Shown one piece after another: positions 37,884 through 46,400 of a stretch of 64,000 bases of DNA. Origin of the DNA: Paramecium tetraurelia (taxonomy: Eukaryota); assembly GCA_000165425.1 (NCBI GenBank), contig CT868057.1, positions 62,001 through 126,000 of the forward strand. The letters run 5' to 3'. A model generated the notes under the pieces. The model was not told the DNA's origin, ran no database searches, and saw nothing but the letters and a program-made list of their open reading frames with translations. Every line of letters starts with the position of its first letter. Within the stretch, counting starts at the first letter, position 1. The position numbers and the translations under genes were made by a program.

Positions 37884-39244
37884 ATGAGCAACAAATCTGT
37901 CACTTAATCTGAAAGAGTAAATGGTGAATCTGCATTTAAAACTTAAATTACTACCAAATACAAACTCACTTTTATCTTTTATGACATAAACATAGAGAAC
38001 AGAAAACTTATAATGTCAGGCTATATTAAGAAGAAATTGCTGGATAGGAGTATCCACTCTCTATACAGTTACAAGAAGTAGAAAAATAATTACCCTACTC
38101 TGAAAGTGATAGTATTCAAGAAACCCTCCTTTGATCCTTTTGATCATACTGATTATATTTAGTTTAAAAAATGAAAAATAATTTTGTCAAAGAATGTAAG
38201 GATAAATTAGATAATTATTTTGAAACAATACCAGATACGAAAGGAGACTTTTAAATATATATCACAGAAAAGATTAGATTTACTTTAAACATAAATGTCC
38301 CTCTTAGATACAAATTGAAATCCGAAATTTACTGAAATGAGACATTATAATTAGATCCTATAAATGAATCAATAATAAATTAAACGTGCCAATGAGAATA
38401 AACAAAATGAAAATAGAATAAGAGAACCGAAGAGAACCGAAGAGAATCGAAGATGAATAAGGTTTTGAAAGAATAAAGTGCTTTTATAAATTTTGAGTGA
38501 TTTGAAAGAATATGGATAATATATTATCCAATAGATATTTCAATTAAGGAATTAGTATTTTCATGATTACATCAAATATCTATAAAGGGAATTATTGAGA
38601 AAAAGGATCTCATCATAAGTAAGGCTATGTAAGTTCCAGAATACTTGAATTCATCTGTTATTAGCAATGCTGGATCTCAAATTCAAACTAAATCTAAACA
38701 TGTCTTTTTCTAGTGCATTCTCAAGCTAACAACTACCCTCTCTTTAAAAAGTATTATAATGAATGAACTCAAATTTTTATATTAATTGCCTTTCCCTTAA
38801 ATTCAGGAGTATGACTTATAACCAGGTGAACAAATCAAGAAGCCATCCACCAATCAGATATAAAAGATTTTGAATCTTTAAAGATTAATCAAATTGAATG
38901 AGAAAATTGTATTCACATTCAGAATAGTCAGTGAACCTTCATTATTACATTTATTTGATTCTAATGGTTGTACATTATTACATTCAGCAGCTCTAAATGA
39001 GAGAAATGGAACTTTTAAGATTTTATTGATAAAACGAATTGATTATAAGAAGACATATAACGAAGGGAGAACTATTTTGGATATAGCAATTAAATAAAAA
39101 AATCAAATATTAATAGATTACATTTATCAAATTAAGAGGAAAGGACTTAAAGAATTGCATTCAAATAATTAAATCATTCTCAATCGAATATCATAAAATT
39201 TAAAAATAATATATTTGTAAGTAGAACCATTAGAATCTACTTGA
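37884..39244 (+). pseudogene. Degenerate ankyrin-repeat gene
   Basis: Ankyrin motifs DSNGCTLLHSAAL and EGRTILDIAI in the 3' frame; the 5' part has several in-frame TGA and frameshifts not explained by GT..AG introns. Confidence 0.5.
38421..38450. repeat. Three-copy 10-bp tandem repeat
   Basis: agagaaccga agagaaccga agagaatcga. Confidence 0.85.
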
Positions 39245-39417
39245 ATATTTCAACAATTTTAGTAGGCTTTAAACTACTTAATAATTTAATTTAAAAGGAG
39301 CAGCAGTTAAGTTGATCAGTATTTTTCGATGGTAGATCGGAAAAGTTATATCAATTAATTTAAGCCTATAAAAATCGTTACAGATTTTATTTATAATTAT
39401 TTAATTTTATAATTTTT

Positions 39418-41265
39418 TCAATCAGAGACTATAAACTACTCATATTCTTCGATTAACTAATGAACATAGTTCAAAATTTTGTATTCTTCTAAAGCAATTT
39501 TGAAACATTAGGCAAAGTCATAGTACTGTAAGGAGGTGATTTTGAATCTTTTGTGGATGATTTACAAGTCTTGTTTCTTGAAAAACCTAACTCCATAGAG
39601 AAGTAGATTTAATTTGCAAAGGATGCTTTGACTCATTTCTGCTTCTTCAGTTTCATAGATTTTATTTAAGTGTCGTTAAACAAATTCATATTCCAAAATG
39701 GAGACTAATTTTGGAATCAGATAGTCTTGACCTAAACTTAAAATTTGTTGTTCTCTTGTTTCCCCTAAGATTATTGGTTTGATCTCATCCCAGTCTTCTA
39801 TGAAATCTTATAATACTAAACTATCATCAGTCAAATTTCTTACAGATTCAACTGCCTTTTATTTGAACTTATCAAAAACCTTTTCATTAATGATAGCTTT
39901 CTTTTAATGAATTAAGTGTAAGTCTTCCCTTGTGATAGCCTTGATGTTGTAACGAAAAAAGTAGTGAAATATATTACAGCAATGTGCAACAAAACGTTAT
40001 CTGCCTCTACGATGAATCAATTCAGATAACATTGCATCTTATGCACAACTATTTACAAAGGTTTCAATAAATAAATTAAATCCCAACTAATTAATATAAT
40101 ATTGGAGATCATTTTTATTTATGATTGCATATTTATAAATGTCCATTCTTCTTAGGAGTTACCTGATATTCTTCCACGGTATACCAGTTTTCTGTAAGGT
40201 TAATGATAGGTAGTATTTGAAATTAGTAAGTTATACATTTGTCAAGCCATATTTTACATGCCTTTCTCTAAGTACTTCACATGAATAATTTGGAGAATCC
40301 AGATGATAAATTAATTGAAAGAAGAGTCTAGCAAATTTCAACTCTTAAGTGGGCACATCAATATTTTCAAAATACGGAGCTAATGTGACATCTGATAATA
40401 TCTTTTTGTACATTGATTTTGTGATAGCTTTGATGCCATCTTCACCTCCGTAAATCTCGAATTCTAATACTTCATTAAGGATATAAGGTCGAATATTTTC
40501 AATACGTTCGCAGCAATGGAACATCTTTTCAGTTGAGATATTTAAAAGCATGTACTTATTTAAAAAATGGTATTTGAACTTGAAAAAGTGAGCATTAGTT
40601 AACTGCATGCCTTAATGAATTACTCTTAAACGAGTCAAGTCTAAAAACATTTCCTGATCATATGCAGTTGCTAAAAGATTTCGAAATACTTATTTGACTC
40701 CAGGATAGTTTTTATTTGGAAACTTTACACTTAAGATATTATCTCTTCTTGTGATATCTAAATATATTTGATCCACTTCATAATTCAATAATTCATCTGT
40801 TCCTTATGGTTTCGGAGCGACTTTTCTCTTTCGAGATAATTCCATCAAATATCCTTAAATAAGTTAATCTTATGATTTCAGTGGGACCAATTATTATTAA
40901 CTATGAAACCTTGATGATTTTTGAATAACACTATTGAATAATTCAGAATTTCTAATTAAACATGAATTCTTTTCCTTTTATCTCCATCTATTCTTACGAA
41001 ACAACACTAGACCTGACATATTGTTTTTTTCACTCTCCAAGGTTTTGAATCGCAAACTCAGTGGAGGATCAATGTGAGTCACTTTAGAATTAGTGATGGC
41101 GTAACTAAAATTTTATTCAATTTAAATTGAATTCCCTTGTGGTTGATATTTGGTTAATAGAAACATAGGATTCAGTTTTGTTGACTTTTTTTTTTCTGGC
41201 AACTTTTTTCTGATAGCATACGTTTCCAAGAAATCTTTAAATGATTTCTGAGTGTCTGATATCAT
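39418..41265 (-). CDS. Four-domain truncated (2/2) haemoglobin-like protein, paralogue A (615 aa, apparently intronless)
   Basis: Domain 2 FEIYGGEDGIKAITKSMYKKILSDVTLAPYFENIDVPTQ...LRERHVKYGLTN matches the group I TrHb pattern; His recurs at codons 40617, 40260, 39909 and 39555. Confidence 0.85.
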
Positions 41266-41286
41266 AAAAAAAAATAAAAATATAAA

Positions 41287-43347
41287 TCAATCGAAAACAA
41301 TATGTTTCTTGTAGTCATCAATAACATCCAGAACCCATTATAATTTAGATGGTTCATCCTGCATTACAATCTTCATGGCCTAAAATAAATGATTAATTTA
41401 AAACTTATTAGAATTCAAAATAGGTTTATTCTCGAATCCGCAATCTCTTGTGGAGAACTTCGATGTCAGTGCGTTTGTAGAAGTGCATTCCATACAGAAT
41501 CAAATTTAACTTGCATTTCAAATTAGGGCAAACCCGAGTTTCATTATCCTTTGATAAGATGATAATCATATTACTTCAAACACTTTGTAAAGAAGTGGTC
41601 TTTACATAATCTCATTCTCTAGTTTGTATGCGATGCGATTAACTACACCTTACCCTCCAAATGATTTAATAATAGTCTTTTTAGGTCTATTCATTAGGAT
41701 GGGTGTAATTTCTTCCCAATCCTCTTCGAAATCGCTTAATAAAATTGGATCATTAGTTACTTTGCTTACAGCTTGCATTGCCTTTTCCTTGAACTTCTTA
41801 TAGACCTTTTCAGAAATGATGGTCTTGTTTCTATGAATAGACTCTATATCATCATCCGTGATTGATTTGACATTATCTCTGAAGAAATAGTGAAACACAT
41901 TTTCACAATGAGCAGTAAATCGTTACTTGCCTCTCTTCTATACTAAATCAAAGAGAATAGGCTCACTCGAACAGAGACGCACAAAACTATCAATAAATTC
42001 TCTATATCCTCCTGGACTGTTATTAATGCATTCTTACAGTGAGGGCTTATTCAATATGGCAAACTTATAAGTATCCATCTTTCTAAGTAATACTCTGAGG
42101 TGTTTGAATCCGATGCCAACCTTTTGTAAAGTTGTGGATAGATAGAATTTGAAATTAGCCAATTGAACATGGGTCAATTTATATTTGACATGCCTTTCTC
42201 TGAGTACTTCAAGAGTGTAGTTCGGAGATTCAGTATGATCGATCAATTAGGCAAACAGTTTAGCAAATTTAACAGCCTACTCTTCCAACTCTATGGCCTT
42301 GAAATAGGGACTTAATGTGTAATCTTTGAATATCTTTTCATACATGTTCTTAGCTATTTCATTGATTCCATATTCTCCACCAAATATTTCAAAATCGCTT
42401 CTCTAATTTAGAATCAAAGGCTTAAAATTTTCCAATTTGTAACAACCCTTAAAAAGTAATTCAACCGGTGTCTCCATCTCCATATATTGATTGATGAAAA
42501 GATATTTGAATCTAATGAACTATTCTTTCTTTATGAAAAGTGGAGCATGAATACTCCTCATTCTAAATGGGTCAAGTAGTATTTCTTAGGTGTATCCAAT
42601 TCCTAAAATACTCTTATAAATATCCTTGAGATATTTTAGGTGTTTCCCTTAGTACTTAGTCTTCAGCTAACGGTCTTGGGTGACTCTAAGATAGAGGGAT
42701 TCAGAATGTTAATCAAGTAATTCATTACTACCATACTATTTGATTTAGGTCTTTATTATCTTTTGGAATTTAGTCTCAAAAAATTTGCTAATGATTTCCG
42801 TTTGTGTCTTTAGGGGTTGTTTTAACTCTCGATGATTCTGCAACACTTTAGGTCTTCGAAGAGATACAAGTTACTCATGAACATTTCTCAAACTGTTACT
42901 ATTGGGGTTCCTGATTTTATGTTATTAGGGAGTGAATTTGAAATGAACAGGAGTGTTAGGCAGTACGATTTCACAAATCTGGGAATCACTAATCATAGGT
43001 AAATGAAAAAGTGTCTGAGTAGGAGATAGCTCTGGAATTTTAAAACTCTTTTACTTATTTCCAAAGTCTTAAGTTGTCACTTGAGTTTGTATGTCGTGTT
43101 TAATGATGAACTGATTGGTTGGTTCTTAGCGTAGGAGACTGCTTAGTTGTTTTTCGCATCTGGATTTCTTAGAATTTTTGGGTGAGACTTGGAGAGTAGA
43201 CAATCGTCCTGTTAATTGGAACTTTTGATCTTCTTTGATTTGTTGCTATTGTATGAAATCTCTAAAGGTCATGCTTTTGGAATCATTTTTCAAATGTTCA
43301 GTTGGGTATTTGAAAGGGCATCCCAAGGATGAGGTTACATTACTCAT
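41287..43347 (-). CDS. Four-domain truncated haemoglobin-like protein, paralogue B (about 669 aa, two introns)
   Basis: FEIFGGEYGINEIAKNMYEKIFKDYTLSPYF...EEQ...LRERHVKYKLTH; collinear with paralogue A; introns 41549-41574 and 41380-41404. Confidence 0.85.
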
Positions 43348-43468
43348 AATTATAAAAATTATATTTATCCTAATATTTGGAGACATTGTTAACCAACTAA
43401 ATCTAATTGTAAGATCAAAATGATTATGAATTATTATATTGCGTATAAAAATGCATTGATTATATTCA

Positions 43469-46400
43469 ATGATTATTTTGATTTTGGTGGCCTTTCTCAA
43501 TATATGCAATGGCCAACTTAAATGCAAGGACTCACACAATTTAACTGTCTAAATGGAACTCACAATCTTGATCCCTAACTACGACTGTATTCTCAATACT
43601 ACTGAAGAAGCCTTGGTTAATATGACATCGTAGAATGCAAGTTTAGTTATCACAGGAGAAAAGCTGCAACTTAATGAGAATGTCCACTTTGAAGGATTCT
43701 CTGCTGTCCAATTTTTGGAGTTAGAAGTAAACACAAATACACATTCATTAATCTCCGATTCTCCAATCTTATTGAAGAAGGTCACACTTCTGAAGCACTG
43801 TCGTTTCCTTGCTACACACATCAAAATTGAAAATAGCACGATTACTTAGAACGTGTTCAGAAATAGACAAATGTTTTCTTCGCCCGTTGTGATTAACGGG
43901 TTATTCATCAAGGACTCCTCCCTCTTCCAAAGTTCAATCACTAATCATTACTTAGAACTATAAAACCTTTTTCTGGAATCAGTCCACATTATTAACTCAA
44001 CGTTAGGAAGTGTAGATTGCATTAATTAAATTGCCATTTAAAATTCATTTATAGCATCTAGTGAATTTTTAAACTGCAACATAATTTAAGAATTCTAATT
44101 GTATAACACCTTTATCATATTGTCCACCTTGATAAGAGCATCAGGAAGTGTCCATATTTCTATTAGAAATGTCTCACTTAGCAAGGCCACTTTGTTTATA
44201 TTGGATAATGAAAATTAAGTCCAAATGAAAAACATCAATTTTTCAGAAATAACCTCCGATACCTCATTAATTACTGTCAACAGTCCCTACCTTAACATAA
44301 CCAATATGATGAATTATCAATTGAAAGTCTAATCGATATTTTAAATAAGTAGCACTGACATGTTTGTTAAGAACATAACTTGTCAGAAACTAGATGGAAG
44401 TATATTACTGTCAAATTAAAGTTAAGATCTAACACTCTTAATTAATCAATTTAATTTGATAGAGAGTACTTCTAAAAGATTATTTGACATGAGTGGGTCT
44501 TTTCAAATTCGAACTGGGATATTCAAATAAAATAACTGTTCATTAATAAATAGCTTAATAATTCATGAGGTCTGGATCGATTCAATGATATTTCAAGATC
44601 TCAACAATTAGCTAATATTATCGGTTTCTGATTCTAATACTCTTCATTTGACAAATTTAACAATCACATCTTGTGAACAAATTATGTTTGCCAAATTTAA
44701 CACTGTCATTAGTGTAAGTCTACAGAATATTAAATTGAGTAATTGTAAGGAATGTAATTTTTTAGTTTTAAATCAAACAAACACATTTATTAAAGACATC
44801 ACTATATTGGATGTCTAGAATTTCTTTAGTACTTTAATATTCTCTTGGAATACCAATATTGTATTGAAAAGACTAAACCTTAGAAATATATATTCTAATG
44901 CTCAATAAATCGTCACCTTGTTTGAAAGCGAAGTGATTGAACTATCGAATTTAATAGTGAACAATGTAGATTGTCAATATTGTTAAGGAATTATTAAAAT
45001 TTCTAATTTCCATTCAGCTCAAATTTTAAAATCTAGTTTCTCAAATTTATCCACATCTTAGGGAACATTGAATATTGAAAACACAACTAACTTCACAGCA
45101 ATAAACAACCAATTTATTAATATAACTGCTATTGATGGATCTAGTTTTTACATTTTCAATTCCTCCATCAAAATATTGCAAAATGAATTCATCAATTTAG
45201 CTGCCAAATCAAAAGGAGGAGCCGTTTATCATATTCAAGCATATAATACAACTTACTATATTGAAAACAATAGTGTTTCAAATGTTACATCCACAAAAGG
45301 ACAACTCACATACTTAGTTACAGAATCAATAACAGCATAAGTTACTGATTTCTATATAGATGGACCTGTGTTCTTTGAGATTTTTAATTAGACCTACAGT
45401 CTTAATAGTCTTATAAGAAAATAGGTGTTCTTATCTTTTCAGAATTTTAAAAGCGGAAAGGAAATTAAATTTAATATAAGTATTTTGGACAGTGACAAAA
45501 ATAAATTGTGTAAATTCCAAGAGAACATCTATTTAAACAATTATTCATACCATTTTGATTAGTATAGATGCAATTATGAAATTACATACTTGTATTATCA
45601 ACAAGAACCTCAAGATGAATAACTTGTAATAATAATTCTGTTGGAATAATTGAAATTATATAATAACAACCCATTTTCTCTTTAAGTTTTACTGAACTTC
45701 ACTTAATGTGAAATTGGAGAATAATGGATACGTAATTCATGTCAAAAATGCATCTATGGAACATATAGTTTCGACACCTAGGCTCCCTGCATACAATGTT
45801 TACCATAAGCTTAATCTTGTTTAGGAGGAGCCGAGATAGACATAAAACCAGGATATTGGAGACCACATAATCTAACAGCCAGCATTGAGCGATGTAAGCC
45901 CTAATTATCAGTGTGTTTGGGTGGCAAAAATAATTTTACTTGTGGTGAAGGGTATTTAGGAGCAATTTGTTAAGATTGTGATTATTACTCGATTAGATGG
46001 GAGAAATCGTATGCTAGAAGTCTCTCCAATTATTGTGCCGAGTGCCAATTCAATTTGATCGATCAAATTAAACCAATTCTAGCATTCTTGTGGATTTCAG
46101 TAATTCTATACTAATTAATCTTTAGAGTGTCCTCTATTTCTCTGTTTGTGGAGCCTTGAAGATGGCTAGGGCTTAATTGGTTGGACGTTATCTTAGACTT
46201 ATTGGATTGCACTTTGGCACCAGATCGTCTATGACTATAGATCAAACTGAAGTGTTGCTCAAAATGATTTCTACTTACTTTCAGTTGCTCTCCATTCTAT
46301 TAGTTCTTAATATCAAGATACCCCAGCCATTTCAATTTCTATCTCAAATCATTGGAAACCCTCTTCAAACCTTTGGATTTCAGATTGAATGCTTACTCAT

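Follow-up and report, generated by a model that had tools for sequence, protein, structure and literature searches.

Two abutting Paramecium tetraurelia genes encoding paralogous proteins with four truncated-haemoglobin-like units each

Introduction

Most work on truncated haemoglobins (TrHbs) deals with single domains of about 120 amino acids (aa), and their physiological roles in protists are unclear. The haemoglobin of Paramecium caudatum (PDB 1dlw/1uvy) is a single-domain group-I TrHb of 116 aa with no extension. According to a 2020 review, multi-unit T globins, composed of multiple 2/2 repeats, have been identified in silico, and ciliates are among the organisms with chimeric and multi-unit T1 sequences (PMC7475203, citing Hade et al. 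2017, IUBMB Life 69:479). Here we describe two neighbouring genes, A and B, on the minus strand of a 64,000-nucleotide stretch of Paramecium tetraurelia DNA (assembly GCA_000165425.1, contig CT868057.1, positions 62,001 to 126,000; hereafter the window, whose own numbering is used throughout). In contrast to the P. caudatum haemoglobin, the products of genes A and B carry a basic extension of 150-200 aa and, fused to it, four units, of which three have diverged too far for Pfam to detect.

Results

Genes A and B lie head to tail on the minus strand

The gene models were translated under the ciliate code (table 6), in which TGA is the sole stop. Gene A (39418..41265, minus strand) is a single table 6 open reading frame (ORF), that is, an intronless coding sequence of 615 aa that ends at a TGA stop (39418-39420) and contains 26 TAA/TAG codons translated as glutamine. 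All of its closest database proteins came from Paramecium of the aurelia complex (7/7 matches), and the named orthologues of the same 615-aa length showed 88-93% identity across 100% of that length. The window is AT-rich (G+C 25-37%), and its DNA reads as macronuclear DNA of a ciliate of the Paramecium aurelia complex.

Gene B (41287..43347, minus strand) encodes 669 aa in three exons (43347-41575, 41548-41405 and 41379-41290), with the stop at 41289-41287. Its two minus-strand introns, intron 1 at 41549..41574 (26 nt, GTA..AAG) and intron 2 at 41380..41404 (25 nt, GTT..TAG), fall within the region encoding the fourth unit; they rest on the collinearity of homologues, the RNA-seq depth having given no splice joints. 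Excising both introns makes gene B collinear again with gene A and with the annotated 669-aa protein P0109 of P. primaurelia, to which the spliced product aligned without gaps over 669/669 residues at 90% identity. The proteins encoded by genes A and B share 44% identity over 493 aligned positions.

In both proteins a basic N-terminal extension precedes four units (D1 to D4), each about 117 aa long and all encoded on the minus strand. In gene A the extension (40819..41265, residues 1-149) is rich in K, S, L and Q, poorly conserved, and carries 28 K/R against 12 D/E (net charge +16). It is followed by D1 (40468..40818, residues 150-266), a cryptic TrHb-like unit with F8 His217 and B10 Tyr168 that begins at about chain residue 7 of 1dly, its A-helix region being without counterpart; by D2 (40111..40467, residues 267-385), a canonical group-I TrHb with F8 His336; by D3 (39769..40110, residues 386-499), cryptic and TrHb-like, with F8 His453, an E10-aligned His428 and Val at B10; and by D4 (39421..39768, residues 500-615), likewise cryptic and TrHb-like, with F8 His571. 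The gene B extension (42748..43347, residues 1-200) is also basic, with 31 K/R against 16 D/E over residues 1-199 (net charge +15), and is 18% identical to that of gene A. The gene B units, delimited from the family alignment and the residue table, are D1 (42400..42747, residues 201-316, F8 His267), D2 (42043..42399, residues 317-435, a canonical TrHb with F8 His386), D3 (41695..42042, residues 436-551, E10-aligned His480 and F8 His505) and D4 (41290..41694, residues 552-669, split by both introns, F8 His624). When gene A was compared with the paralogue P0004, to which it is 75% identical overall, the extension showed 53% identity and the globin units 75-90%; not one residue of the extension was invariant among seven paralogue lineages. 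The N-terminal extension is free of conservation and probably disordered.

An earlier note on this DNA had described two collinear minus-strand genes with basic N-terminal extensions and four repeats marked by a regularly recurring histidine. Its gene coordinates proved exact, the two gene B introns being absent from its account, and the charges given above agree with its view of the extensions. The histidine of the repeated motif lies at residues 217, 336, 453 and 571 of gene A (RVIH, RERH, HLIH and QIIH), with exactly the spacings of 119, 117 and 118 that had been reported, and is mirrored at residues 267, 386, 505 and 624 of gene B (RSIH, RERH, ESIH and EVLH), where the three spacings are 119, 119 and 119.

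All four units match truncated haemoglobins in profile comparisons

The Pfam family PF01152 recognized unit 2 only, both in gene A (26.5 bits, E 7.8e-6) and in gene B (23 bits, E 9.7e-5, residues 319-432), the cut-off being 21. The family assignment of each repeat was therefore borne out by PF01152 for unit 2 in both genes and not for units 1, 3 and 4, which gave no match; the D3 piece of gene B, searched singly, had none at E <= 10. When gene A was compared with PDB sequences using phmmer, every globin match fell within residues 262-384, and the best match of unit 2 was the P. caudatum haemoglobin itself (1dlw_A, E 6.9e-8).

Profile-to-profile comparison extended this assignment to all the repeats. 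From a family alignment of 18 Paramecium sequences the truncated P0006 was dropped, and the remaining 17 rows were cut into four unit alignments; hhalign was then used to align each of these to a profile built from 17 single-domain TrHbs, which came from the representative protein search described below, the E-values being those of a single pairwise comparison. Every unit matched: D1 with a probability of 98.8% (E 4.6e-17, 112 columns), D2 with 99.7% (E 1e-26, 116 columns), D3 with 89.3% (E 2.1e-6, 105 columns) and D4 with 96.8% (E 2.9e-10, 106 columns). The conserved histidine fell on the F8 column in all four alignments. As controls, each unit alignment was also run once reversed and ten times with shuffled columns (4 + 40 in total); these control runs peaked at a score of 16.6 with probabilities of at most 1.4%, compared with 39-148 for the real units, so that the four repeats clearly exceed chance. 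Among the units themselves, D1 and D2 formed the one strong pair (probability 98.2).

Two further, independent hints point the same way as the profiles. In the paralogue P0020 a PF01152 match (E 1.5e-10) covers residues 159-239, which is its equivalent of unit 1. In addition, multi-unit TrHbs of other organisms align unbroken over the D1-D2-D3 junctions of gene A (residues 211-505, 213-437 and 266-489).

Predicted structures of the cryptic units resemble group-I truncated haemoglobins

AlphaFold2 (AF2) models were built from 21-row alignments for units 3+4 (mean pLDDT 83.2, pTM 0.68) and for residues 128-268, which contain unit 1 (pLDDT 82.6, pTM 0.70). With the VIA aligner, the best structural matches of the unit 1, 3 and 4 models were group-I TrHbs. 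A search of 48,161 PDB representatives, independent of Foldseek, also placed group-I TrHbs on top for both models, and all 50 listed rows per model were globins or globin-fold relatives; the Z-values of this search lie within the tool's ambiguous range for helical proteins and were used only alongside the profile evidence. The models of unit 1 and of units 3+4 thus match group-I TrHbs before anything else, and on these predictions the units have a 2-over-2 helical globin fold and are of group N/T1 type.

The proximal histidine is conserved and the distal pockets differ

Residues are given the topological names B10, CD1, E7, E10 and F8, following the standard TrHb nomenclature, anchored on the alignment to 1dlw. 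Unit 2 of gene A carries G273-G274, Tyr286 at B10, Tyr298-Phe299 (CD1), Gln307 at E7, Lys310 at E10 and His336 at F8; hence the group-I hallmarks that the earlier note had listed for repeat 2 (GG, Tyr B10, YF at CD1, Gln E7 and His F8) hold on the HMMER alignment to 1dlw. Unit 1 has Tyr at B10 in the A and B lineages and apolar residues at E7 and E11. Position B10 of unit 3 is occupied by Val or Ile, and an invariant histidine stands at both the E10-aligned position and F8, these two making up two of the unit's six invariant residues; the E10-aligned histidine (His428 in A, His480 in B) is invariant in 7/8 lineages, on a D3 alignment whose probability is only 89%. In unit 4 a polar distal residue is not clearly evident, and the position taken as B10 is possibly off by one.

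The F8 histidine was retained in 16/17 family rows for each of D1, D2 and D3 and in 17/17 for D4. Across seven paralogue lineages, whose mutual identity is as low as 14-34%, the invariant residues number 7 in D1, 19 in D2, 6 in D3 and 4 in D4, the F8 histidine being among them in each unit. The hydrophobic pocket positions CD1, G5 and G8 are aromatic or aliphatic in all units. Together, the profile matches, the predicted folds and the residue tables uphold the picture of four consecutive group-I 2/2 units that each keep a proximal histidine and have clearly different distal pockets.

Both genes are weakly transcribed

Transcription was assessed in three stranded oligo-dT RNA-seq runs bearing the same species label as the DNA. 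The interval 39200-43700 collected 38, 89 and 59 reads in the three runs; all reads in 39351-43276 shared one orientation, while those of the neighbouring plus-strand gene were mostly of the opposite one, and the depth fell to zero at 43277-43427. These data fit weak transcription of both gene A and gene B from the minus strand. At the prevailing depth of about 0-4x no pile-ups of read starts or ends appeared in the three runs, and this depth is too low to show whether reads bridge the spacer between B and A.

The same reads showed mismatches to the window at four sites of gene B (41728 G>A, 41734 G>A, 41746 T>G and 41770 A>T), present in many or all of the reads covering them, for example 9/9 and 7/9 at 41746. 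A strain difference or cross-mapping from a close paralogue could account for them.

The B-then-A arrangement recurs among Paramecium paralogues

A minus-strand spacer (41266..41286) of 21 nt, all A/T, lies between the stop of gene B and the ATG of gene A (41263-41265), and across it the two frames coincide (…VFD*FIFLFFFMISD…). So short a spacer can hardly accommodate both a 3' untranslated region and a promoter; either the 3' end of the B mRNA and the promoter or 5' end of A overlap coding sequence, or the two genes are co-transcribed. A single long B-A gene joined by an intron was rejected, because the sole GT..AG candidate over the junction has a length of 43 nt and would cause a frameshift.

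Counting paralogues from protein databases, we found the B-then-A order in the cluster listings at 9 loci of five named species: two in P. primaurelia, two in P. tetraurelia, one in P. pentaurelia, one in P. octaurelia and three in P. sonneborni. At 7/9 loci the two proteins have neighbouring accession numbers on one contig, and at the other 2/9 the pairing is inferred from contigs of equal length. Every named annotation of the orthologous or ohnologous loci has two separate proteins, of 648-671 and 514-616 aa. There is also an older pair of paralogues, which share about 53% identity with B and A. The annotations of P. tetraurelia and P. octaurelia list it as separate proteins of 656 and 585 aa (P0115+P0135 and P0117+P0134), and those of P. 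primaurelia, P. pentaurelia and, twice, P. sonneborni have a single eight-unit protein of 1307-1320 aa in its place. The fused models (P0116, P0118, P0133 and P0136) are probably prediction artefacts, since they bypass the 'VSDF-stop' that is conserved at the C-terminus and continue through about 66 codons of the spacer. Further four-unit paralogue families of Paramecium are represented by P0009 (644 aa), P0020 (630 aa) and P0061 (494 aa). The number of PF01152 stretches in this group was one each in P0004, P0008 and P0020, and zero in P0009 and P0061.

Other open reading frames at the locus

A code with TGA as the only stop yields long spurious ORFs. These include the 780-aa extension 5' of the gene B start and ORFs of 183-338 aa antisense to the globin genes, on the plus strand at 39460-40206, 41241-41792 and 42169-43185. 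No homologue support was found for either the antisense plus-strand ORFs or the 780-aa extension, and the reads inside the globin genes all had one orientation, as for minus-strand RNA and not for the antisense ORFs. The 780-aa ORF (41566..43908) was rejected as the true gene B because its 5' end is too long and its 3' end is broken off; the orthologues start with the methionine at 43347, and no RNA reads cover 43277-43427. The pair is flanked on the gene B side by a plus-strand ORF of 896 aa (43469-46159), divergent from gene B, with many Asn-x-Ser/Thr sites and a Cys-rich C-terminal part, and on the other side, downstream of gene A and on the opposite strand, by a plus-strand ORF of 205 aa (38627-39244).

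Discussion

Taken as a whole, and with the binding of four haems per chain included, we consider it likely that A and B are transcribed head-to-tail paralogues encoding four-unit group-I TrHbs. The parts of this reading differ in strength. The gene models, the fourfold globin architecture, the keeping of an F8 histidine by each unit and the purifying selection acting on all four are either directly demonstrated or strongly supported by our results. A globin fold in all four units is very probable. Haem in all four units appears somewhat more probable than its absence from some of them, and a bis-histidyl unit 3 is a tentative proposal for which the odds are rather against.

Several observations weigh against this reading. 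Searched singly, units 1, 3 and 4 of gene A gave no match to PF01152 even at E <= 10 (0/3); a profile of five D3 sequences compared with PDB sequences returned eight weak, chance-level matches, none of them a globin; and the whole-family profile matched PDB globins at E <= 1 only via unit 2, its sole PDB globin match outside that unit being 1ux8 (E 1.7, profile positions 139-208). Foldseek against the PDB found no match at E <= 0.001 for either model, the best being E 7.8e-3 for D1 and, among TrHbs, E 0.45 for D3+D4, with nearly all of the listed matches being globins. The AF2 models themselves are predictions built on 21-row alignments. Outside the D1-D2 pair the units resemble each other weakly, with hhalign probabilities of 77.7 (D1-D4), 63.6 (D3-D4), 36.7 (D2-D4), 18.1 (D2-D3) and 6.2 (D1-D3), and the repeat must therefore be old and diverged. 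Only unit 2 carries the canonical GG, the corresponding residues being G-T/S in unit 1, N-Q/N in unit 3 and G-Q/G in unit 4; the basic E10 residue is missing from units 1 and 4, and Phe E14 is substituted in every unit. According to a review of TrHbs, the Gly-Gly motif between helices A and B is conserved in groups N and O, and a basic E10 residue helps to hold the haem propionates (PMC4720485). The assignment of His428 to E10 depends on an alignment of 89% probability and is possibly off by one. In P0061, a four-unit protein of 494 aa from P. sonneborni, the F8 histidine is replaced by Thr, Ser and Asn in units 1-3 and kept in unit 4 only; His-free versions of these folds therefore exist. Lastly, RNA depth is about 0-4x, and no splice joints are listed for the gene B introns.

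Some of these points would be expected of a protein in which unit 2 alone binds haem and units 1, 3 and 4 form a degenerate, pseudo-globin scaffold serving structure, oligomerisation or partner binding, with their histidines acting as fold contacts or metal sites. Units 1, 3 and 4 stay below every sequence-to-profile threshold, lack the GG and, in units 1 and 4, the basic E10 residue; 19 residues are invariant in unit 2 as compared with 4-7 elsewhere, and the P0061 lineage retains the folds despite having lost the F8 histidine in units 1-3. However, the F8 histidine is among the merely 4-7 residues of units 1, 3 and 4 that survive over seven lineages at 14-34% identity, which is hard to reconcile with a non-functional histidine, and CD1, G5 and G8 remain aromatic or aliphatic in every unit. 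We therefore regard a single-haem chain as unlikely, while giving it real weight. The more radical idea that units 1, 3 and 4 are unrelated helical repeats that have fallen into a globin-like spacing by chance would agree with their failure to match PF01152, but is contradicted by hhalign values of 39-96, as against at most 16.6 in 44 controls, obtained over full-length matches with the histidine on the F8 column. An unbiased structural search ranked group-I TrHbs first (50/50 listed rows being globins or globin-fold relatives), unit 1 of the paralogue P0020 passes Pfam at E 1.5e-10, and the multi-unit TrHbs of other eukaryotes span the D1-D2-D3 junctions continuously, all of which makes this idea scarcely credible.

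A different question is whether B and A are separate at all, or constitute one transcription unit or even an eight-unit protein produced by stop-codon readthrough or unrecognised splicing. The 21 A/T bases between the gene B TGA and the gene A ATG, the coincidence of the two frames, the B-then-A order at 9 loci of five named species and the annotation of the older pair as a single protein of 1307-1320 aa in three species all speak in favour of a joint product. On the other hand, chance alone would place two genes in the same frame in one case out of three, and the named annotations of the orthologous and ohnologous loci all show separate proteins. The fused models run past the 'VSDF-stop', an outcome that a gene predictor can yield when TGA is the only stop, and the lone GT..AG candidate at the junction (43 nt) would break the frame. 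With RNA-seq depth at the junction too low to decide, we judge a single B-A unit very unlikely and favour two separate genes.

If genes A and B do encode four-unit TrHbs, each unit would bind one haem b through its F8 histidine, giving four haems per chain. Unit 2 shares Tyr B10, Gln E7, Phe CD1 and Lys E10 with the Paramecium haemoglobin and would on that account be the classical O2/NO-reactive site. Units 1 and 4 would have largely apolar distal sites. In unit 3, where the histidines at E10 and F8 are invariant, the haem may be bis-histidyl and six-coordinate like that of GlbN; a review of TrHbs names His or Lys at E10 as a candidate for the sixth haem ligand (PMC4720485). The most likely role of such a chain of high haem density would be O2/NO redox chemistry, for example NO dioxygenation or O2 buffering. 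The O2/NO sensor or haem-relay function that the earlier note had raised in place of simple O2 storage would be a further candidate, beside that of a store or an enzyme. A more elaborate scheme, which we consider quite improbable, would make the protein a self-contained four-haem redox device: the bis-histidyl, cytochrome-b-like haem of unit 3 would pass electrons to the haem of unit 2, and this internal transfer would re-reduce the chain during NO dioxygenation without a separate reductase partner. In the same scheme the abutting B-then-A pair would encode the two halves of an eight-haem assembly, formed as a heteromer or by occasional readthrough fusion.

Ciliate globin censuses report 21-46 globin genes per Paramecium species (PMC6474222). 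Such censuses may undercount globin domains several-fold, because standard annotation detects at most one of the four units. Retention of the proximal histidine alongside divergence of the distal pockets offers a natural test of the division of labour between ligand chemistry and electron transfer, and the maintenance of the head-to-tail pairing through genome duplications suggests co-regulation or joint function. Paramecium is amenable to RNAi by feeding and to GFP tagging, and proteins A and B would be ordinary candidates for soluble expression.

Four-domain chains had been set apart in the earlier note from the classic single-domain haemoglobin of Paramecium. As to their novelty, multi-unit TrHbs, those of ciliates included, had already been reported in silico; what stands is that our searches of the open literature brought up no laboratory characterisation of a multi-unit TrHb. 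With four units per chain, A and B have more than the minimum of at least two TrHb units that defines a multi-unit protein. A search of representative proteins gave 76 at E <= 0.001, of which 19 were scanned with Pfam, and 14 of these 19 were non-Paramecium multi-unit TrHbs with 2-12 PF01152 stretches each. They include a protein of 1882 aa with 12 stretches from the diplonemid Lacrimia lanifica, one with 5 from the green alga Astrephomene, those of the chytrids Boothiomyces and Globomyces with 3 each, a cluster with a raphidophyte member that has 4, and a metagenome protein called 'hemoglobin' with 6; the other 8/14 are metagenome or transcriptome records. Multi-unit TrHbs with 3-12 units visible to Pfam thus occur well outside the ciliates (P0011, P0013, P0014, P0017, P0019, P0022, P0051 and P0055), and in one of them, P0022, three TrHb units are followed by an ankyrin-repeat tail.

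Among described globins, then, A and B are closest to the multi-unit T1/TrHbN class recognized in silico, in which several group-I 2/2 units follow one another head to tail and of which ciliates are named as carriers in the review cited above. They differ from the single-domain THB1 and THB4 of Chlamydomonas and haemoglobin of C. eugametos (4xdi, 6bme and 1dly). The chimeric three-globin-domain proteins of Guillardia theta likewise combine several diverged and occasionally defective domains in one chain, as described in PMC4101818; however, their domains have the 3-over-3 myoglobin fold and an independent origin, whereas those of genes A and B are 2-over-2. The same paper gives the acceptance criteria used there (fold-recognition score, F8 histidine and proper helix alignment), and we applied the same logic to units D1-D4. 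For unit 3 the relevant counterpart is the cyanobacterial GlbN.

This protein (Synechocystis / Synechococcus) is a bis-histidyl, six-coordinate TrHb whose haem ligands are His46 (E10) and His70 (F8), whereas the corresponding coordination in unit 3 is inferred from the alignment alone. In the non-Paramecium multi-unit TrHbs every unit passes PF01152, while in the Paramecium family at most one does. The multi-unit architecture is consequently of a known and widespread kind, and what is particular to the Paramecium family is the presence of no more than one Pfam-visible unit, the second histidine of unit 3 and the conserved abutting gene pairs.

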